A stretch of DNA of 60,019 nucleotides, counting the filler. It is 7 parts of 7 records of this genome, joined end to end, with 100 filler letters (N's around TTAATTAATTAA, not from the genome) between each part and the next. Parts side by side here need not be neighbours in the genome. Positions count along the whole stretch, not along the records: positions 54,796 to 60,019 come from SRR31156797_10209; 6 more parts are not named here. One strand, 5' to 3'. The position numbers were made by a program, and so were the translations under genes. The notes under the pieces were generated by a model, which did not search any database, had not been told where the DNA came from, and saw nothing but the letters and a program-made list of their open reading frames with translations. This document shows positions 13,126-60,019 of this stretch, piece by piece. Positions within the stretch are counted from its first letter, which is position 1. Each line of letters starts with the position of its first letter.

Positions 13126-15480
13126 ATGGCGAGAAAAGGCGAAACAGACATGACTTACAACAATATTCTCAGTAAAATCGGCAATACCCCGCTGGTACCC
13201 ATTACCCGCCTTTCGTCCCACAATGATGTGGAGATACTGGCCAAATTGGAGGGATTTAACCCCGGTGGATCCATCAAGGACCGACCGGCCTTGAAAATGA
13301 TCGAAGAGGCCGAAAAAACGGGCGCATTGAAAAAAGGGAAGATCATTCTGGAAGCGACCAGTGGCAACACGGGGATCGGTCTGGCCATGGTGGCCGCCGT
13401 CAAGGGATATGATATCTTATTAACCATGTCCGAAGCGGTCAGTGAAGAACGGGTTAAGATCCTTGCGGCCCTGGGAGCTAAAATAGAATTTACCCCGGCA
13501 CACCTGGGAACCGATGGCGCCATTGAACATGTCTATAACCTGGCCCGGGAAAATCCTGAAAAATTCTGGCTGGCCGATCAGTTTAACAATGTCGCCAACT
13601 GGATGGCCCATTATGAAAGCACCGCCATGGAAATATGGGAGCAAACGGAAGGGCATCTAGACGCCATTGTGGCCACCATGGGAACCACCGGCACCCTGAT
13701 GGGAATTTCCAGGCGGTTCAAGGAGTTGGATCCATCCGTTCAAATCATCGGCGTGGAACCGTATCTGGGGCACAAGATCCAGGGGCTCAAAAACATGAAA
13801 GAGTCCTACCAGCCGGGCATTTTTGAAAAGGAGAGAGCAGACCGGATTATCAAAATTGAAGACGAAGACGCCTTTGAAACCGCCCGAATGCTGGCCCGGA
13901 AAGAAGGGATTTTTGTGGGGATGAGTTCCGGGGCCGCCATGGCGGTGGCCCTTAAGGTGGCCCGAAAGATGGATCGGGGCCGCATTGTGGTTATTCTGGC
14001 CGACGGCGGCGAGAGATATCTCAGTACGCCTCTGTTCATGGCCAGAAAGAAATCAGGACTCCGCGTATACAATACCATGACCCGCAAAAAAGAGGATTTT
14101 GTCCCCGTAAAAGAGAACCATGTCACCCTCTATTCCTGTGGTCCCACCCTTTGCCAGGTCATTGATATCGTACAATGCCGGCGCCTGCTTTTCTCCGACC
14201 TGATCAGCCGCTATTTGACCTTCAAAAGGTATGAAGTGACCCACATCATGAATGTGACGGACCTGGACGACCGCACCATTGAGGGGGCTCAAAAGGCCGG
14301 TGTTTCCCTTAAAGAGTTTACGGATATGTTTTACAATTCTTTCATGACGGATCTGGACAGCCTAAACATCGTAAAGGCCTCCCAATACCCACGGCCCAGC
14401 GAACATGTGGACGACATGATAGCGCTGACCCAGACCCTTCTGGAAAAGGGATATGCCTATGAAAAGCTACGTTCCATATACTTTGATATCTCCAGGTTCA
14501 AAGACTACGGAAAACTCTCCAACGTTGACCTCAATAAAATCAGAATCGGCAAAACCGTCGATCTGGACCAATATGAAAAAGAAAACCCCAAAGATTTTAC
14601 CCTGTTGAAAAGATCCACCCTCAGCGAACTGAAAACCGGCATTTTCTTTAAGACGAAATGGGGAAATGTACGGCCGGGATGGCACCTAGAGTGTGCCACC
14701 ATTGCCCTCAAAACCCTCGGGCCCACTCACGACATACACACCAGCGGTGTGGCCCTGGCATTCCCCCACCACGAAAACGCCATCGCCATCAGCCAGGCCG
14801 CCACCGACAGACCCCTGGCCAATTACTGGCTTCACAATGAGCCGGTCATGTTCAATGGCCCCAATGCATTTGATAACGGTCACCTGACATTCAGGGATCT
14901 TCTGGCAAAAGGGTACACGGGAAGGGAGGTTCGATACTGGTTGCTCAGTCGACACTATCGGAAACCGATCTTCTTTTCCCAGACTAAGCTTTCCGCTGTC
15001 AGAAACACCATTGCCCATCTTGATAAATTTGTTCAGAAACTCTATTTTGCAAGACCGGTCTCGGTGAACCCCGATCTTGACCAAGTCATTTATGCTTTGA
15101 AACAAGGCTTTGTAACCGCCATGGACGATGATTTCAATGTGGCCGCAGCCCTGGCAGCCCTTTTTCGTTTTACCCGCGACATCAACCTGATGATGGATCA
15201 AAGGGGCCTGGCCGCTTCGGATCTGGGGAAAATACTGGCGGCTCTCGGGCGGATTAATTCGGTCCTGGGGATTATGGACCTGAAACCGGCTGATGCCGAC
15301 CCGGAAGTGGAGGCACTCATTGAAAAAAGGGAATTGGCCAGGAGTCGAAAAGACTGGTCCACGGCTGACCATCTCAGAGACGAAATGGAGAACATGGGGA
15401 TTGAGGTGATCGATACCCAGCACGGACCGCGATGGAGAAGAATTGAGCCACAAGGAGACATCGAAACGCCACTCGAATAG
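13126..15480 (+). CDS. Cysteine synthase (CysM/CysK) fused to a degenerate cysteinyl-tRNA synthetase-like domain; alternative start 13150
   Basis: N-half: KLEGFNPGGSIKDR, ATSGNTG, GTTGT. C-half: YNTMTRKKE, CGPT, NVTDLDD, RPGWHLEC, FPHHEN, MDDDFN and anticodon-binding tail; HIGH and KMSKS absent. Confidence 0.92.
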   Translation: MARKGETDMTYNNILSKIGNTPLVPITRLSSHNDVEILAKLEGFNPGGSIKDRPALKMIEEAEKTGALKKGKIILEATSGNTGIGLAMVAAVKGYDILLTMSEAVSEERVKILAALGAKIEFTPAHLGTDGAIEHVYNLARENPEKFWLADQFNNVANWMAHYESTAMEIWEQTEGHLDAIVATMGTTGTLMGISRRFKELDPSVQIIGVEPYLGHKIQGLKNMKESYQPGIFEKERADRIIKIEDEDAFETARMLARKEGIFVGMSSGAAMAVALKVARKMDRGRIVVILADGGERYLSTPLFMARKKSGLRVYNTMTRKKEDFVPVKENHVTLYSCGPTLCQVIDIVQCRRLLFSDLISRYLTFKRYEVTHIMNVTDLDDRTIEGAQKAGVSLKEFTDMFYNSFMTDLDSLNIVKASQYPRPSEHVDDMIALTQTLLEKGYAYEKLRSIYFDISRFKDYGKLSNVDLNKIRIGKTVDLDQYEKENPKDFTLLKRSTLSELKTGIFFKTKWGNVRPGWHLECATIALKTLGPTHDIHTSGVALAFPHHENAIAISQAATDRPLANYWLHNEPVMFNGPNAFDNGHLTFRDLLAKGYTGREVRYWLLSRHYRKPIFFSQTKLSAVRNTIAHLDKFVQKLYFARPVSVNPDLDQVIYALKQGFVTAMDDDFNVAAALAALFRFTRDINLMMDQRGLAASDLGKILAALGRINSVLGIMDLKPADADPEVEALIEKRELARSRKDWSTADHLRDEMENMGIEVIDTQHGPRWRRIEPQGDIETPLE

Positions 15481-52867: not shown

Positions 52868-54016
52868 TTAATACATTTTTTTTAGTAAATCTAATACCGC
52901 TTCTTTATCTATTTCTCTTGGATTTGTCATAAGTGCCATTTTCTCATTAAGAATTGCTTCAGCTAAAATCTCTAATTGCTCTGTCTTAATTCCAAAATCT
53001 TTTAAGCTTGGAATATTTAATTTTTCAACTAGTTTTTTTAGCTCCTCAACAACTATTTTTGACGCTTTAACTGCTTCTAACTCTTCAAGTTCCAATCCCA
53101 TTGCGATACCACATTCTTTAACTTTTTCAGGTACACTTTCAGCATTATATTCAATAGCGTGTGCTAAGGCAATTGCATTTGCTGCTCCATGTGGAATATG
53201 ATGGAGAGCACTAAGAGGATGTGCTATTGCGTGTACAAGACCTAAACTAGCATTTGTTAATGCCGTTCCAGCCATCATACTTCCTAGCATTAAATTTTCC
53301 CTTGCTTTTTCATTTTCTCCATTTTCATAGGCCAGCTGTAAATTATTAAAGATTAATTGAACAGATTTTAACGCAAATTGATCTGTTAAGATATTTCTTC
53401 CCAAAGATAAATATGCTTCTATTGCATGAGTTAATGCATCCATTCCTGTATCTGCAGTAATTGATGCTGGAAGAGTATAAGTTAACTCTGGATCTACTAG
53501 AGCAATACTTGGGAATACTTCTAGTCCCCCAACAACAAATTTTCTTTTTTCTTTAACATTTGTAATAACAGAAACTCCTGTTACTTCACTACCTGTTCCA
53601 GAGGTTGTAGGTATGCAAATTAAAGGTTTTGTTGGATTTTTAGAAATTGAAAAATCTTCGTATCTATTTATTGGTGACGGGTTTGTCAGTAGTATGTTTA
53701 TTGCTTTGGCAGCATCCATAGAGCTCCCTCCTCCAATTGCAACTACTACGTCAACTTCTGCATGTCTACCAATTTCTCCAGCTTTTTCTATAATTGTGTC
53801 TGCTGGATTTGCTTCCACTCCTCCAAATTCTGTAATTACCAATTCAGCTTCTTTCAATGAATCCAAAATTTTATCAACAATTCCAACCGACTTAATTCCT
53901 TGATCATAAATTGCAAGAACTTTTTTTGCCTTTAACCCCTTAACGATTTCTCCTATTTTTTGACTTTCTCCTTGTCCAAAAATAATTTGAGGCCCCATTC
54001 CAAATGTAAAATTCAT
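52868..54016 (-). CDS. Iron-containing alcohol dehydrogenase
   Basis: GGGSSMD, IPTTSGTGSE, DALTHAIE, LVHAIAH, PHG. Confidence 0.95.
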   Translation of the reverse strand: MNFTFGMGPQIIFGQGESQKIGEIVKGLKAKKVLAIYDQGIKSVGIVDKILDSLKEAELVITEFGGVEANPADTIIEKAGEIGRHAEVDVVVAIGGGSSMDAAKAINILLTNPSPINRYEDFSISKNPTKPLICIPTTSGTGSEVTGVSVITNVKEKRKFVVGGLEVFPSIALVDPELTYTLPASITADTGMDALTHAIEAYLSLGRNILTDQFALKSVQLIFNNLQLAYENGENEKARENLMLGSMMAGTALTNASLGLVHAIAHPLSALHHIPHGAANAIALAHAIEYNAESVPEKVKECGIAMGLELEELEAVKASKIVVEELKKLVEKLNIPSLKDFGIKTEQLEILAEAILNEKMALMTNPREIDKEAVLDLLKKMY

Positions 54017-54169: not shown

Positions 54170-54565
54170 ATGCAGAATGATTTATTGAAAGAATGCGGCG
54201 AATGCCAATGTGAAGAAACTGTTAAGGAGTCTCTGTGCCCTGTCTGTCTTAGCCAAAGAGTCCTGAAAGGAAAGTGGAAAATTGTAATTATTTTTTTACT
54301 AAAGGAAAATTGCTTAAGATTTTCTCAAATAAAAAAATCCATTCCAAAAGTTACTCAATCGTATTTAAGTAAACAATTAAAAGAATTAGAAAATGCAAAC
54401 CTTATTAATCGACGCTCATTTAACGAAGTTCCACCTAGAGTTGAGTATTCACTTACAGAACAAGGAAAGGCATTAAGTTCAGTCATAGGTGGTATCGGTA
54501 CTTGGGGAAGAAACTATGGTGAAATGATATTGCAAAATCAAAGTGAAAAAATTTTAAAGATTTAA
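54170..54565 (+). CDS. HxlR/HypR family winged-helix regulator
   Basis: CPV..GKWK, RF, L..QLKELE, EVPPRVEYSLT. Confidence 0.92.
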   Translation: MQNDLLKECGECQCEETVKESLCPVCLSQRVLKGKWKIVIIFLLKENCLRFSQIKKSIPKVTQSYLSKQLKELENANLINRRSFNEVPPRVEYSLTEQGKALSSVIGGIGTWGRNYGEMILQNQSEKILKI

Positions 54566-54695: not shown

Positions 54696-54795
54696 NNNNN
54701 NNNNNNNNNNNNNNNNNNNNNNNNNNNNNNNNNNNNNNNTTAATTAATTAANNNNNNNNNNNNNNNNNNNNNNNNNNNNNNNNNNNNNNNNNNNN
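54696..54795. other. Artificial contig linker
   Basis: N44-TTAATTAATTAA-N44. Confidence 0.98.
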
Positions 54796-54797
54796 AG

Positions 54798-55799
54798 GCA
54801 CAACTGGGATTAAGCGAAAGTCTGGCAAGCAATGCAGATCCCTGGCTCTGCTATTACTGTGGAGACTGTTCTGAAACCTGTCCACGCGATGCCAATCCGG
54901 GAGAAATAATGATGACCTTGCGCCGTTACCTCACTTCGGTTTACGACTGGACCGGATTTTCAGGCTGGTTGTACAAATCGGCAAAGGCCCACATCATTAC
55001 TATGATAATTCTTTTTGCTACAGTTATTGGAGCTTTCTTTATTTTCGGAGGGCCAATGGTTACCGAGTTAACACCAGAAGGTGGCGTCCAAATTAATGTA
55101 TTTGCTCCAGCTGAGACTATTGCCGCTATCGATCATATAATTTTGTTGATTCTTTCAATCTTTCTTGTAACAAATATCGTAAACATGTTTTACAAGGTTG
55201 TTCTGAAAGATAAATCAGTACATATTCCGTGGTATCTTTATATCACTGAAATAGGTGAAGCCTTTGTTCATTTCGGTACCCAGCTCAGGTTTTCGAAATG
55301 CAATAAAAGCTTCATGTATTGGTTTGGTCATTGGTTTTTAATGATCGGGTATGTAACCATGTTCGTTCTTATCATCTTCTTTTTAAGTTGGTTTCAAACC
55401 GAAAACATTCATGCCTGGTACCATCCGCAGCGTATAATTGGGTATATTATTACTACCGGTTTTCTATTCGGAACAACCTTTTTTATCATTGGAAGACTTC
55501 GTAAAAAAAGAGAGATTTTTAAATACTCACACCACAGCGACTGGATTTTTGTAATTCTGTTGTTCCTTGTGGCATTCACCGGAATCCTGATTCATATTTT
55601 CAGGATTAACGGAATGCCCTACGCCACTTATTTTGCTTACATAGCCCATCTGGCATTTGAGATGCCAATGGTAATAACTTTTGTAGCCTTCTCAAAATGG
55701 TCGCACCTGGCCTATCGTCCGCTGGCCATTTATTTTAATAACATGAAAAAGAAGGCAAGGGTAATGCAGTTGAAATCAAAACTTTCGATGTTCTACTAA
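54798..55799 (+). CDS. QmoC-like subunit (HdrC-type 4Fe-4S domain plus b-type cytochrome-like membrane domain), 5'-truncated
   Basis: Frame is open upstream of ATG 54909: PWLCYYCGDCSETCPR..PGE; several TM helices with His residues; FSKWSHLAYR. Confidence 0.8.
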   Translation, partial: AQLGLSESLASNADPWLCYYCGDCSETCPRDANPGEIMMTLRRYLTSVYDWTGFSGWLYKSAKAHIITMIILFATVIGAFFIFGGPMVTELTPEGGVQINVFAPAETIAAIDHIILLILSIFLVTNIVNMFYKVVLKDKSVHIPWYLYITEIGEAFVHFGTQLRFSKCNKSFMYWFGHWFLMIGYVTMFVLIIFFLSWFQTENIHAWYHPQRIIGYIITTGFLFGTTFFIIGRLRKKREIFKYSHHSDWIFVILLFLVAFTGILIHIFRINGMPYATYFAYIAHLAFEMPMVITFVAFSKWSHLAYRPLAIYFNNMKKKARVMQLKSKLSMFY

Positions 55800-55810
55800 A
55801 ACTGAATAAG

Positions 55811-57550
55811 ATGGATGAAATAAAAATAGGAGTTTATGTTTGCTGGTGCGGCACCAACATTGCAAAAATGGTTGATGTAGACGAGGTTGTTGAACAGGTT
55901 CAGGATCTGCCGGATATTGCTTTGGCGCGTAACTATAAATACATGTGTTCCGATCCGGGACAGGAAATGATTATTCGCGATATTAAACAGCACAAACTAA
56001 ACCGGGTGGTTGTTGCTGCTTGTTCTCCACGTATCCATGAACTCACTTTCCGTAAAGCACTGGCAAAAGCAGGATTAAATCCTATGATGTTTCAGATGGC
56101 TAATATCCGCGAACAGGTAGCCTGGGTGCATACCAACCGCGAAAAAGCCACTGAAAAAGCTGTGTCGTTGATAAATGCTGCCATCAACCGGGTAAAATGG
56201 CACGAATCTTTGGATAAACGTACCGTTGAGGTGAATCCGACTACCCTTGTAATTGGAGGCGGTGTAGCCGGAATGTCGGCAGCATTGGAGATTGCTGAAG
56301 CCGGGAAACCTGTTTTTCTGGTAGAAAAATCAAAAAAATTAGGCGGCCATGCTGCTGAGATCGACCTCACCTTTCCATACTTTTTCAGTGCACAACAACT
56401 TATAAAACCGATGATTCAACAAGTGGAAAACCACGATAATATCAAGGTTTTAAAACCAGCCGAAATAGAAGATATTTTTGGATACGTAGGAAATTTCGAA
56501 GCTACCCTTACAAATAAAGGCAATCAGGAAGAGAAGCTGAAGTTTGGAAATATTGTGGTTGCTACGGGTCTCCAAACCTTTGATCCATCATCCATTTCAA
56601 ACTACAATTATGGGGCATTACCCGATGTGGTTACTTCTCTTGAATTCGAAAAAATGCTTCGAAATGGAAGAATTGAAACCCAAAACGCTATCGAACCAAA
56701 AAACATCGCCATTATTCATTGTGTGGGAAGCAGAAATGCTGATTACCATGAATATTGTTCGCGAACCTGTTGTATGACGGCTTTAAAATTTGCCAACCAA
56801 ATTCGATCGGCATTACCAAAAACCCACGTATTTGATTTGTATGCCGACATGCGTGCCTTTGGAAAAGGCTGCGAAGAGTTGTATACACTTACCTCGCGTA
56901 AAGATGTTATGTTCCTGCGTTACGACCAGAACAATGGTCTCCCGGCAATTCGCAAAACCGATGGTAGCAGCGATTCTTCAATGCTGATAGAATTTAAAGA
57001 GCAGTTATCGAAAGAGGAAATTGAAGTTCCTGCCGACCTGGTAATTCTGATGGTTGCCATGGAAGCCCGTCCTGATGCAAAAAAAACGGCACATGCTGCA
57101 GGAATAAGCATGTGTGGCAACGACTTTTTTATTGAAAAACACCCAAAATTAGATCCTGTAGCGACGACTTCCGACGGGGTTTACATTGTAGGCTCCTGCC
57201 AGGCTCCAAAAGATATACCCGATTGTGTTTCGCAAGCACGTGCAGCAGCAGCACGGGTGCTGGCAACAATTCATGTGGGTACTGTTGAAGTGGATGTAAT
57301 AACTGCTGCTGTAAATGAAGATATCTGCTGCGGATGCCAGACATGTGTGAGTGTTTGCCCATACAAAGCCATTTCATTTAACGAAGAAAAAAGTGTGTCG
57401 GAAGTGAATGAAATTCTCTGCAAAGGCTGTGGAACCTGTGGATCCACCTGCCCTACCGGAGCCATACGCTCACGGCATTTTACCGATCAGCAAATCCTGT
57501 CGCAAATCAGGGGTTTGTTGTCTGAGCCAAATGAACTCGAAAAAATGTAA
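55811..57550 (+). CDS. hdrA: Heterodisulfide reductase subunit A-like flavoprotein (short form)
   Basis: GVYVCWCGTNI, YMCSDPGQ, AACSP, NIREQ, IGGGVAG, CVGSR, CSRTCCM, HPKLDP, C-terminal 2x CxxCxxCxxxCP. Confidence 0.93.
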   Translation: MDEIKIGVYVCWCGTNIAKMVDVDEVVEQVQDLPDIALARNYKYMCSDPGQEMIIRDIKQHKLNRVVVAACSPRIHELTFRKALAKAGLNPMMFQMANIREQVAWVHTNREKATEKAVSLINAAINRVKWHESLDKRTVEVNPTTLVIGGGVAGMSAALEIAEAGKPVFLVEKSKKLGGHAAEIDLTFPYFFSAQQLIKPMIQQVENHDNIKVLKPAEIEDIFGYVGNFEATLTNKGNQEEKLKFGNIVVATGLQTFDPSSISNYNYGALPDVVTSLEFEKMLRNGRIETQNAIEPKNIAIIHCVGSRNADYHEYCSRTCCMTALKFANQIRSALPKTHVFDLYADMRAFGKGCEELYTLTSRKDVMFLRYDQNNGLPAIRKTDGSSDSSMLIEFKEQLSKEEIEVPADLVILMVAMEARPDAKKTAHAAGISMCGNDFFIEKHPKLDPVATTSDGVYIVGSCQAPKDIPDCVSQARAAAARVLATIHVGTVEVDVITAAVNEDICCGCQTCVSVCPYKAISFNEEKSVSEVNEILCKGCGTCGSTCPTGAIRSRHFTDQQILSQIRGLLSEPNELEKM

Positions 57551-57553
57551 GTT

Positions 57554-57979
57554 ATGGAATTTGAACCAACAATCGTATCGTTTCTCTGTAACTGGTGCTC
57601 CTACACCGGAGCCGACCTTGCAGGAACTTCGAGAATGAAATATTCACCCAACGTAAGAATTATCAGGGTGATGTGTTCGGGCAGAATTGATCCAACTTTT
57701 GTTCTGGAAGCTTTTAAAGATGGTGCCGATGGTGTTTTATTGTGTGGCTGCCATCCTGGCGACTGCCATTATCAATCCGGCAATTACAAATGCCTGCGAC
57801 GTTACGACATGTTGCAGAAATATTTCAAGCAACTCGGAATCAATCCAAAAAGAATAAAACTCGATTGGATCAGCGCCAGCGAAGGAAAACAATTTGCCGA
57901 ACTAGCCGACTCGTTTACTGAAACTATCAGGGAACTTGGACCATGCAAGATTAAAGAAATAATCAATAACTATTCGTAG
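57554..57979 (+). CDS. mvhD: Hydrogenase iron-sulfur subunit D ([2Fe-2S])
   Basis: CNWCSYTGADLAG, RVMCSGR, GCHPGDCHY, WISASEG. Confidence 0.95.
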   Translation: MEFEPTIVSFLCNWCSYTGADLAGTSRMKYSPNVRIIRVMCSGRIDPTFVLEAFKDGADGVLLCGCHPGDCHYQSGNYKCLRRYDMLQKYFKQLGINPKRIKLDWISASEGKQFAELADSFTETIRELGPCKIKEIINNYS

Positions 57980-57990
57980 GAGGATAAATT

Positions 57991-59022
57991 ATGGCTGAAC
58001 AAGAAAGACCAAAAATAAAGCTGGCAATATACTGGGGTGCTGCCTGTGGCGGGTGCTGTGTTTCGGTTCTGGATGTACATGAAAAACTGTATGATGTGGT
58101 GGCATCAGCCGATCTTGTTTTCTGGCCCATCGCCCTCGACATTAAATACGCCGACGTGGAAGCCATGCCTGATCAACACATTGATGTGACACTTTTTAAC
58201 GGTGCTATCCGAAACAGCGAAAACGAACACATGGCCCGCTTATTAAGAAAAAAAACAAAAATTCTGGTTGCCTATGGATCTTGTTCTCACCTGGGTGGTA
58301 TCCCGGGATTGGCCAACCTCAGTACAAAACAAGAAATTTTTGAACGTGTTTACAATCAATCGGAATCAACAGTAAATAATGAAAAAACTATACCTCAGGA
58401 GAAAACAGAGGTAAAAGAAGGTATGCTAACACTGCCTGAGTTTTATAATGATGTTAAAACGTTGGGACAAACCGTTTATGTAGATTATTTCTTACCAGGC
58501 TGTCCACCACAAACCGAGCGCTTGTTGGAAGTTTTTATGGCTATCGTTAATGGCAATGAGTTGCCACCAAAAGGTTCTGTAATTGGTGCAACAGATAAAT
58601 CTCAATGCGATGAATGTAACCGCAAAAAAACAGACAACAAAATAATAAAAGAATTCCATCGCCCCTGGGAAATTGATGATGATGGCGAAACCTGCTTTTT
58701 AGAACAAGGAGTACTTTGTATGGGGCCAGCAACCCGCACTGGCTGTGGGCACCGCTGCATCGAATGTAATGCTCCCTGCCGCGGGTGTTATGGCCCTGCA
58801 CCCGATGTAATAGATCCGGGAGCTAAAATGATGTCGTCGGTAGCAACCATGATTGACGGTGATACACCCGAAGAAATTGAAAAGATACTGGAAAATTTAA
58901 TTGATCCGGCCGGATATTTCTATCGCTTTAGTATGCCCGCTGCCATACTTCGACGAAAGATTTATCAAAAAAAACAGTCGGAATTGCTATCAAAGGGTTC
59001 AGCAGATAAAGAGAAAATATGA
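57991..59022 (+). CDS. mvhG: Group 3c [NiFe] hydrogenase small subunit
   Basis: ACGGC, GAIRN, GSCS..GGIPGL, PGCPP, CDEC, CFLEQG..CMGPATR.GC, CRGCYGP. Confidence 0.9.
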   Translation: MAEQERPKIKLAIYWGAACGGCCVSVLDVHEKLYDVVASADLVFWPIALDIKYADVEAMPDQHIDVTLFNGAIRNSENEHMARLLRKKTKILVAYGSCSHLGGIPGLANLSTKQEIFERVYNQSESTVNNEKTIPQEKTEVKEGMLTLPEFYNDVKTLGQTVYVDYFLPGCPPQTERLLEVFMAIVNGNELPPKGSVIGATDKSQCDECNRKKTDNKIIKEFHRPWEIDDDGETCFLEQGVLCMGPATRTGCGHRCIECNAPCRGCYGPAPDVIDPGAKMMSSVATMIDGDTPEEIEKILENLIDPAGYFYRFSMPAAILRRKIYQKKQSELLSKGSADKEKI

Positions 59023-59069
59023 ATTAAATGATATAAATACTGGAATTGGAAAAAACCTGATGGCATAAA

Positions 59070-59090
59070 CGGACTTCGCACTTCGGACTT
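59070..59090. repeat. Three tandem heptamers
   Basis: CGGACTT-CGCACTT-CGGACTT in the mvhG-mvhA spacer. Confidence 0.6.
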
Positions 59091-59115
59091 CCAGGTTCCT
59101 GCAAAAATTTTAATT

Positions 59116-60019
59116 ATGAGACAGATTACAATAGATCCGATTACCCGTCTTGAAGGACATGGCAAAATTGAAATTTTCCTTGATGATGAAGGTGAAGTGG
59201 ACAATGTATATTTCCAGGTTCCCGAACTTAGGGGATTTGAAAAATTCTGTGAAGGCAGACCGGTGGAAGAGCTTTCACAAATTGTTACAAAGATTTGTGG
59301 GGTATGCCCGGGTTGTCATCATATGGCTTCGGGCAAAGCAATAGATGCAGTGTTTGGAGTTGAACCGCCTCCTACCGCAAAAAAATTACGCGAACTGTTT
59401 TATATGGCACACTTTGTACACAGCCACATTGCTCATTTCTATGCCTTGGCAGCACCCGATTTTGTGGTTGGACCAACAGCTGCCAAAGCCGAACGCAACA
59501 TCCTGGGTGTAATTAACAAAGTGGGAACCAAAACCGGTACCGAGGTAATCCATCAGCGTAGACTGGCGCAGGAAATACAAGCCATGTTGGGAGGTCACCA
59601 AACCCATGTGGTTATGAACATGCCTGGTGGTGTACGTAAAAGGTTAAACGAAGAACAACGTGAAGACATTGAAAAACGTGCATTGGGATTTATCGAGTTC
59701 GCAAAGTTCTCATTGGAACTGTTCCAAAACGTGGTACTCGAGAACAAGGAATATGTCGACATCATTCAGAATGGCCCCTATAATCTGAACCTGCACTCCA
59801 TGGGGCTTGTGGATGAAAACAATTTCGTGAACTTTTACGATGGAAAAGTAAGGGTAGTCGACACCGAAGGAAAAGAACACTGTAAATATGCTCCCGAAGA
59901 TTATAGGGATTTTGTGGAAGAACGGGTTGAACAGTGGAGTTACCTGAAATTTCCTTACCTGAAAAAAATAGGATGGAAAGGTTTTGTTGAAGGACAAGAT
60001 TCCGGCGTGTACCAGGCAA
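59116..60019 (+). CDS. mvhA: Group 3c [NiFe] hydrogenase large subunit, 3'-truncated at window end (not in ORF track)
   Basis: Manual translation open to the end: IDPITRLEGHG, ELRGFE, KICGVCPGCH, HFY..APDF, YLKFPYLK. Confidence 0.92.
   Translation, partial: MRQITIDPITRLEGHGKIEIFLDDEGEVDNVYFQVPELRGFEKFCEGRPVEELSQIVTKICGVCPGCHHMASGKAIDAVFGVEPPPTAKKLRELFYMAHFVHSHIAHFYALAAPDFVVGPTAAKAERNILGVINKVGTKTGTEVIHQRRLAQEIQAMLGGHQTHVVMNMPGGVRKRLNEEQREDIEKRALGFIEFAKFSLELFQNVVLENKEYVDIIQNGPYNLNLHSMGLVDENNFVNFYDGKVRVVDTEGKEHCKYAPEDYRDFVEERVEQWSYLKFPYLKKIGWKGFVEGQDSGVYQA

Follow-up and report, generated by a model that had tools for sequence, protein, structure and literature searches.

The final contig (positions 54796-60019) of the 60,019-nucleotide stretch of DNA analyzed here, hereafter the window, carries what is, judging from its sequence, a truncated copy of a membrane-anchored Mvh-HdrA-QmoC hydrogenase operon, real but of a known, uncharacterized kind. 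The contig appears to represent the 3' two-thirds of a conserved hdrA1-qmoC'-hdrA2-mvhD-mvhG-mvhA-protease operon of a Draconibacterium-like member of the Bacteroidota, QmoC' being the QmoC-like membrane subunit. The encoded complex probably passes electrons from H2 to the membrane quinone, and perhaps also to ferredoxin. The best explanation for this gene set, to which we give about an even chance, is a membrane-anchored Mvh-HdrA-QmoC' complex that bifurcates the electrons of H2 to menaquinone and ferredoxin. The features of the contig are the following:

54798-55799, + strand: QmoC-like subunit, a frame open at its 5' end (333 residues), with CxxCxxCxxxCP and a His-rich membrane part
55811-57550, + strand: HdrA2, an HdrA-like flavoprotein with flavin adenine dinucleotide (FAD) and iron-sulfur sites (579 residues)
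57554-57979, + strand: MvhD, a free-standing [2Fe-2S] adaptor (141 residues) with a match to FlpD
57978-57983, + strand: AGGAGG Shine-Dalgarno motif preceding mvhG, the sole one in the cluster
57991-59022, + strand: MvhG, [NiFe] hydrogenase small subunit (343 residues; Oxidored_q6, VhuG)
59116-60018, + strand: MvhA, [NiFe] hydrogenase large subunit, first 301 residues, cut by the end of the window; CGVC motif

Open reading frames and family scans bore out the gene order proposed in the initial annotation (an HdrC-type membrane subunit followed by HdrA, MvhD, MvhG and MvhA), and the gaps of 3-11 bp reported there up to mvhG were likewise found, the intergenic distances from the qmoC-like gene to mvhA being 11, 3, 11 and 93 bases. 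The statement that Shine-Dalgarno motifs are absent before most genes holds for three of the four complete starts, with mvhG as the exception. The QmoC-like fragment matched the NCBIfam qmoC model with an E value of 1.1e-44 (153 bits) over profile positions 47-360 of 360, and HdrA2 scored 583 and 439 bits against the HdrA2 and HdrA families, respectively. MvhD matched Pfam FlpD (E 2e-56) as well as VhuD and the C-terminal positions 647-775 of the HdrA2 model, while MvhG reached 235 bits against VhuG and the MvhA fragment 268 bits against VhuA (next family, 139). Since the full-length relatives of the QmoC-like protein have 383 residues, about 50 codons were lost from the 5' end of its gene.

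The organization of the complete operon was deduced by searching species genomes with an alignment of QmoC-like sequences; at least 597 of 600 candidate stretches were confirmed, and the best 80 loci were mapped with the window proteins. In relatives the complete operon reads (crp/fnr)-hdrA1-qmoC'-hdrA2-mvhD-mvhG-mvhA-protease. An HdrA2-type gene (at least 50% identical) directly follows the QmoC-like gene in 35 of the 80 loci, the hydrogenase-linked type, and mvhD-mvhG-mvhA continue in 28 of these; two others end partway in the mvh genes (L004, L054), three end at or in hdrA2 (L015, L018, L042), one has mvhDGA upstream of hdrA1 instead (L022) and one contains the hdrA1-qmoC'-hdrA2 module, hydrogenase genes being absent within 10 kb (L013). 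A hydrogenase-free type, with two HdrA-like genes upstream in a qmoA-B-C order, accounts for 37 loci, and 8 are too short to be assigned. In the 28 complete loci hdrA1 lies directly upstream of qmoC' in 27 (the exception, L053, has only 200 upstream bases), a maturation protease gene follows the operon in 24, a Crp/Fnr gene precedes it in 17 and a 159-residue open reading frame occurs in 9. The hydrogenase-linked loci belong mostly to Bacteroidota, plus one Ignavibacteriales metagenome-assembled genome (MAG), one MAG labeled as Chlorobiota and two unclassified MAGs.

The operon is also present in the cultured isolate Draconibacterium aestuarii Z1-6 (L006), and is therefore directly testable; there it comprises hdrA1 (605 residues), qmoC' (383 residues, with a 4-base overlap with hdrA1), hdrA2 (579 residues), mvhD, mvhG, mvhA (487 residues) and the maturation protease gene. 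As relatives carry hdrA1 upstream of qmoC', the gene lost at the contig break would be a second HdrA and not HdrB. This agrees with the observation in the initial annotation that no HdrB is visible, the upstream slot being occupied in relatives by the second HdrA. The initial annotation had advised a search for further hdrA and did not anticipate a second, complementary paralogue. No hdrB or other CCG-domain gene was found in the 21-kb D. aestuarii locus.

The two HdrA paralogues differ in the ferredoxin domains that they have kept. HdrA2 of the window aligned to residues 9-245 and 323-657 of the methanogen HdrA 8rvu_a, with the inserted ferredoxin domain absent, and retains the N-terminal Cys pair (YVCWCG), the FAD fold, the sequence CVGSR...YCSRTCC and the C-terminal 2x[4Fe-4S] domain. 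HdrA1 of D. aestuarii aligned to residues 7-561 of 5odc_A, with the inserted ferredoxin domain present and the C-terminal one absent, and shows FLYHPG at the position of the Cys pair; the motif CVGSR...YCSRxCC is common to both paralogues. Because each of them is devoid of a different ferredoxin domain, HdrA1 and HdrA2 are complementary and together provide roughly the cofactors of a single HdrA dimer. When placed on the HdrA2 profile, HdrA2 and MvhD combined span the same positions as single-chain QmoB, and HdrA1 spans those of QmoA plus an N-terminal domain. Based on these alignments, we infer that HdrA1 and HdrA2 would form a heterodimer of the QmoA/QmoB kind, in which MvhD is freed to dock the hydrogenase.

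For the full-length MvhA of D. aestuarii the best solved match was MvhA 5odc_F (389 bits), with 9sw2_F also matched, both from Mvh-Hdr complexes, followed by the bifurcating NiFe-HydABCSL 7t2r_D and then by the NAD-reducing enzyme 5xf9_D. The N-terminal CGVC motif of the nickel site is present in the window MvhA. Considering the matches to VhuA, VhuG, VhuD/FlpD and 5odc_F, [NiFe] group 3c is the best assignment for MvhA, MvhG and MvhD, and the hydrogenase is predicted to be cytoplasmic because the N-terminus of MvhG is without a twin-arginine signal.

QmoC' consists of an HdrC-like [4Fe-4S] domain fused to a multi-helix membrane domain (7-8 helices). At the N-terminus it is similar to the HdrC of solved complexes (7bkb_C, E 9e-15; also 5odc), and the second Cys motif is kept in the fragment. 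Five histidines (His178, 245, 266, 284 and 303, fragment numbering) are invariant in 83 homologs, and His205 and His209 are nearly so; His178, 284 and 303 occur also in two QmoC sequences linked to apr genes, and His245 and His266, special to the QmoC' family, are placed at opposite ends of one helix in an AlphaFold2 model of the fragment (predicted local distance difference test 83, predicted template modeling score 0.80). The long helices of this model span residues 62-83, 105-136, 145-167, 172-194, 210-235, 246-270, 274-298 and 300-332. In a structural search against 48,161 chains the top three matches were NarI 1q16_C (Z 8.8, 181 residues aligned), mycobacterial EtfD 9ojn_A (Z 8.8, 221 residues) and the superoxide oxidase CybB 5oc0_A (Z 8.3), with FdnI also among the matches (Z 6.1), values that are moderate given that a Z below about 13 can be reached by chance for helical bundles. 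All four are di-heme b, quinone-reactive membrane proteins. The initial annotation had proposed a structure prediction for heme b ligands, and held that a membrane subunit with no heme or quinone site would speak against its reading; the conserved histidines and the NarI/EtfD-like model favor heme b, and the case for QmoC' as a di-heme b, quinone-reactive subunit is thus good but not decisive.

A distinction from the Qmo complex of sulfur metabolism could be made in five related genomes, G001 to G005, the first four of which are those of L001, L006, L002 and L003, respectively. The gene aprA scored over the cut-off in only two of them (G004 and G005) and in none of the three Draconibacterium genomes (G001-G003). 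In G004 and G005 an aprB-aprA-qmoA-qmoB-qmoC cluster (QmoA, 411 residues; QmoB, 705; QmoC, 364) is located on a contig other than that of the hydrogenase operon, and the apr-linked QmoC, which reaches 384 bits on the qmoC model (G004), is 26-27% identical to the QmoC-like protein of the window. The apr-linked QmoC being encoded elsewhere and only this similar, the hydrogenase-linked QmoC' is a distinct paralogue, and a plain Qmo associated with aprAB, a possibility raised by the initial annotation, is not what these genomes contain.

As a separate observation, the two Bacteroidota MAGs with both the hydrogenase operon and aprBA-qmoABC (L081, G004:C12:92000-106200; L082, G005:C18:17000-36999; aprA, 880 and 664 bits) suggest that Prolixibacteraceae-like bacteria carry out dissimilatory sulfur metabolism or, alternatively, that the bins are contaminated.

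A supply of menaquinone, for the genes of which the initial annotation had advised looking, is indicated by the relatives: a marker of menaquinone synthesis is present in four of the five, MenA scoring over the cut-off in G002 and G003 and MqnA/MqnD, of the futalosine route, being found in G001 and G004. Close relatives are therefore split by the marker of the pathway, classical MenA or futalosine MqnA/MqnD.

In the bifurcating reading, the operon proteins would form one membrane-anchored complex in which the cytoplasmic group-3c-type [NiFe] hydrogenase MvhAG would oxidize H2 and MvhD would relay the electrons to the FAD of the HdrA1/HdrA2 heterodimer. From there, a high-potential branch would lead through the iron-sulfur clusters of the HdrC-like domain and the heme b membrane domain of QmoC' to menaquinone (MK), and a low-potential branch through a ferredoxin domain to ferredoxin (Fd), the flavin-based bifurcation following 2 H2 + MK + 2 Fd(ox) -> MKH2 + 2 Fd(red) + 2 H+. 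The standard potential (E0') of H2 is -414 mV and that of ferredoxin approximately -450 to -500 mV. For menaquinone, an E0' of -75 mV is given by Ramos et al. (2012). At these standard potentials the forward bifurcating reaction would be exergonic by roughly 50 kJ per 2 H2. The sequences show the gene content and its conserved synteny, the complementary domains of the two HdrA paralogues, the absence of HdrB and of a link to Apr and, in relatives, markers of menaquinone synthesis. We infer the assembly of the complex, the binding of heme and quinone, the direction of electron flow and the bifurcation itself from homology and thermodynamics, and the splitting of H2 electrons between menaquinone and ferredoxin is on this basis plausible but unproven. 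We put forward tentatively, as a claim that we judge to have somewhat less than an even chance, that the operon product is a membrane-bound hydrogenase of a new class, which splits H2 electrons in this way by flavin-based bifurcation.

Besides the modest Z values of the structural matches, several observations weigh against bifurcation to menaquinone and ferredoxin. A fourth canonical His column of QmoC is Gln in the QmoC' family, and heme ligation may consequently differ from that in QmoC. Foldseek retrieved no match of the QmoC' model in the PDB at E <= 0.001, and a PDB profile search with the 83 homologs matched the iron-sulfur domain only, with no solved relative of the membrane domain found by sequence. 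The cut-off of the NCBIfam qmoC equivalog (NF038018, 300 bits) is missed both by the fragment (153 bits) and by the full-length D. aestuarii protein (195.5 bits). In addition, locus L013 indicates a module not strictly dependent on Mvh, hdrA1 and the first approximately 50 codons of qmoC' lie off the contig so that their presence in this organism is presumed from relatives, and literature searches returned neither biochemical nor genetic evidence on members of the operon family.

Four other explanations were weighed. In the first, which we consider unlikely, the complex would be a plain H2:menaquinone oxidoreductase with no bifurcation, in which the HdrA pair acts as a wire or as a two-to-one-electron converter and ferredoxin takes no part. 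Every part needed is present, and electron transfer from H2 to menaquinone alone is strongly exergonic; however, 27 of the 28 complete loci retain two FAD-carrying HdrA paralogues, one of them with an inserted ferredoxin domain, which would make a costly and unusual wire, and known H2:quinone hydrogenases manage with a simple cytochrome b. The absence of bifurcation would have a parallel in canonical Qmo, for which, as far as the account of Ramos et al. (2012) goes, bifurcation is likewise unproven.

It is rather unlikely, in our judgment, that HdrA1/HdrA2-QmoC' serves an unidentified third partner (e.g., a sulfur carrier or another reductase), onto which the hydrogenase and the quinone pool would confurcate, in the way that QmoA serves AprAB. 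The 37 hydrogenase-free sister loci, with the same QmoC-like protein and two HdrA-like genes, are consistent with this possibility, as is the Mvh-free module of L013, and confurcation with a hydrogenase as Qmo co-donor was proposed in the discussion of Qmo by Ramos et al. (2012). Nevertheless, no conserved partner gene was found in the Mvh-linked operon, which is bordered by a regulator upstream and the maturation protease downstream.

Operation in the reverse direction, that is, confurcation with evolution of H2 during fermentation, in which reduced ferredoxin together with menaquinol (or ferredoxin alone) would drive proton reduction, appears quite improbable. The hosts are fermentative anaerobes, the role given in print for group 3c enzymes of Ignavibacteriae is re-oxidation of ferredoxin, at least in the account available, and the initial annotation had allowed for this direction. 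On the other hand, menaquinol (-75 mV) is a very poor donor and, as calculated from standard potentials, confurcation would be endergonic save at extremely low H2.

Finally, a standard soluble MvhADG-HdrABC with hdrBC encoded elsewhere is hardly credible: CCG-domain genes do occur in all five related genomes searched, and this is the routine annotation of group 3c enzymes from related phyla in the publications consulted, but such genes occur also in 12 of 14 control genomes, including Escherichia coli, those of the complete chromosome G001 (1.05 and 3.92 Mb) lie more than 1 Mb from the operon (approximately 5.2 Mb), and the HdrC-like domain is here fused to a membrane domain. To our knowledge, the methanogenic heterodisulfide is not expected in Bacteroidota. 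The adjacent hdrB that would have made a standard HdrABC, as the initial annotation put it, was thus found neither in the D. aestuarii locus nor near the operon in G001.

With respect to the origin of the contig, the 60-kb window is not a single molecule and consists of seven joined pieces separated by six identical linkers, the operon contig being the last piece, with its start at 54796. The guanine plus cytosine (GC) fractions of pieces 1 to 7 are 0.275, 0.497, 0.303, 0.363, 0.348, 0.290 and 0.424. The feature that divides the contig under study from its unrelated neighbor is:

54696-54795, no strand: linker of 100 bases (N-run, TTAATTAATTAA, N-run)

Across this linker the GC fraction changes from 0.290 in the left piece to 0.424. 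Given that 54796-60019 is a separate contig behind a linker, the operon has no linkage to anything on its left, including an HxlR regulator and an alcohol dehydrogenase gene.

The host predicted in the initial annotation, a member of the Bacteroidota, was supported by all five proteins of the operon contig, the closest relatives of which are from Draconibacterium/Prolixibacteraceae. The QmoC-like protein, HdrA2, MvhD, MvhG and MvhA are 83, 84, 95, 86 and 91% identical, respectively, to those of an uncultured Draconibacterium chromosome (L001). Among 6,022 candidates, 3,936 homologs of the QmoC-like protein were obtained at E <= 0.001; the best are 86-76% identical, and those with names are Draconibacterium or Prolixibacteraceae. 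A tree of 84 QmoC-like rows placed the window protein in a Draconibacterium and Prolixibacteraceae clade with 100% support in the Shimodaira-Hasegawa-like approximate likelihood ratio test, and the GC fraction of the contig agrees with that of Draconibacterium/Prolixibacteraceae loci (0.415-0.432). The PheT encoded on piece 4 shares 88% identity with that of Draconibacterium, and DsbD of piece 1 and the alcohol dehydrogenase of piece 6 are only 30-36% identical to proteins of four Draconibacterium/Prolixibacteraceae genomes. One protein being Draconibacterium-like and the other two not, at least two organisms are mixed in the assembly. On these similarities the operon is assigned to a Draconibacterium-like organism of a mixed assembly, and the low-GC pieces 1 and 6 look foreign to this host. 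The possibility that the operon contig is itself a contaminant, its GC fraction of 0.424 being unlike that of its neighbors, was considered and rejected, as PheT on piece 4 is likewise Draconibacterium-like.

The probable source run contains an 18,026-letter contig, the first 2,826 letters of which correspond to 54796-57621 and which, on its minus strand, extends approximately 15.2 kb further upstream of the break, and a 15,466-letter contig that covers 57592-60019 and extends approximately 13 kb downstream; both have a depth of 12.1. As these contigs reach beyond both ends at equal depth, the breaks at 54796 and 60019 are not real ends, and public data should allow the lost end of the operon, with hdrA1, to be retrieved. 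Two marine-sediment runs contain only small shares of the contig, mostly at less than 90% likeness, and no RNA runs were listed as containing it.

Regarding the surroundings of the operon in relatives, the flank in D. aestuarii Z1-6 contains the following:

L006, upstream flank: hypD and hypF, divergent; genes for a HEAT-repeat protein, a protein of unknown function and PCMT; crp/fnr
L006, 16316-16795, + strand: Cys-rich 159-residue open reading frame overlapping the end of the protease gene, with no Pfam or NCBIfam match

Two further loci show duplications: in L052 a second set of mvhDGA is present, with another hdrA1 after it, and L045 contains a second hdrA-qmoC'-hdrA set, inverted and divergent, without hydrogenase.

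Several features of the remaining pieces of the window were also recorded. GGDEF/EAL proteins and a PoxB-type pyruvate dehydrogenase are encoded, together with DsbD, on the low-GC pieces. Positions 13126-15480 (+ strand), on the 50%-GC piece, form one 784-residue open reading frame that combines a CysM/CysK cysteine synthase (residues 14-304) with a cysteinyl-tRNA synthetase, which is complete (residues 312-772); enzymes for making cysteine and for charging it onto tRNA are unusual fusion partners. The unrelated contig next to that of the operon carries an HxlR-family regulator with an N-terminal Cys-rich extension (54170-54565, + strand), divergent from an iron-type alcohol dehydrogenase (52868-54016, - strand). 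An Rfam scan of the window gave zero matches, and nine window proteins looked up by exact sequence had no identical entry in the collection used.

The operon is common, mainly in anaerobic Bacteroidota, as illustrated by the frequency of the HdrA2-linked arrangement (35 of the best 80 loci), and the window copy itself, being truncated, adds little. Should the proposed mechanism hold, the complex would be the first HdrA-based bifurcating enzyme to reduce a quinone, and a working model for how QmoABC functions in sulfate reduction. It would also provide supposedly fermentative Bacteroidota, Ignavibacteriota and their relatives with an H2-driven route to respiration and to low-potential reductant, and would represent a long-sought Qmo-type module whose "third partner" is physically encoded.

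The closest published system is found in the Archaeoglobi methanogens Ca. Methanoglobus nevadensis and Ca. M. hypatiae, in which a cluster of MvhAGD, two HdrA and an HdrC-QmoC fusion, with no HdrB or AprAB, has been described and electron flow between H2, ferredoxin and menaquinone has been proposed, the Mvh-Qmo-Hdr cluster of Ca. M. hypatiae being highly expressed (995-2431 reads per kilobase per million; bioRxiv 10.1101/2022.12.01.518715; PMC10945360, as far as these reports were available). The hypothesis is therefore already in print for archaea, and the idea of bifurcation is not new. The same gene set, including two HdrA, is present in L001-L003 and L006, one HdrA being off the window at the contig break; the hosts are archaeal there and Bacteroidota here, and the two systems are likened by published gene set. 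In 401 sampled genomes of the archaeal phylum of L048, a QmoC' match was present in 50, six of them close (40-49% identity), and all six, including G006 (L048/L083), show the hydrogenase-free arrangement; the remaining loci of this sample have no mvhG/mvhA within approximately 1.5 kb, and the Methanoglobus cluster was not recovered among the 401 genomes. In bacteria, one paper uses the label MvhADG/HdrABC for the group 3c enzyme found in a MAG of Ignavibacteriae, and another, in the part consulted, places Hdr genes upstream of the group 3c hydrogenase of Caldithrix and gives their function as unknown. No description of the bacterial operon was found in full-text searches of the literature, a scope outside of which lie supplements and the review of Appel et al. 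(2021).

In comparison with the MvhADG-HdrABC complex of methanogens (Vhu-Hdr; PDB 5odc, 8rvu, 9sw2), MvhA, MvhG, MvhD, HdrA and the HdrC-like domain are homologous, and the hydrogenase-MvhD-HdrA wiring is presumably the same. In contrast, the operon described here is without HdrB and hence has no heterodisulfide site, its HdrC is fused to a cytochrome-like membrane domain, predicting a membrane-bound complex where that of methanogens is soluble, and the single HdrA homodimer is replaced by two paralogues, each minus one ferredoxin domain.

With QmoABC of sulfate reducers and sulfur oxidizers the operon has a three-part design in common, in which flavoproteins resembling QmoA and QmoB, the latter with an MvhD module, are combined with a QmoC that has iron-sulfur and cytochrome b domains. 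According to Ramos et al. (2012), whose account is drawn on here in part, QmoC is a fusion of HdrC/HdrE type with two hemes b that are reduced by quinols, and a hydrogenase was already listed there among the possible co-donors or partners of Qmo. The operon differs from QmoABC in its A-C-B gene order, in encoding MvhD as a protein of its own and in the additional N-terminal domain of HdrA1, and QmoC', which falls under the family cut-off and shares only 26-27% identity with apr-linked QmoC, is linked to a hydrogenase instead of aprBA.

NarI, EtfD and CybB are the best structural matches of the modeled membrane domain, and EtfD also joins an iron-sulfur part to a cytochrome b domain; nonetheless, sequence similarity in the membrane part is not detectable and the structural match is moderate. 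The hydrogenase-free hdrA-hdrA-qmoC' operons, which occur in Bacteroidota, Chloroflexota, Krumholzibacteriota and others, share the QmoC' family (44-54% identity), their members being interleaved with those of the Mvh-linked type in the tree, and are distinguished from the operon of this Draconibacterium-like bacterium by a qmoA-B-C-like gene order and the lack of mvhGA.

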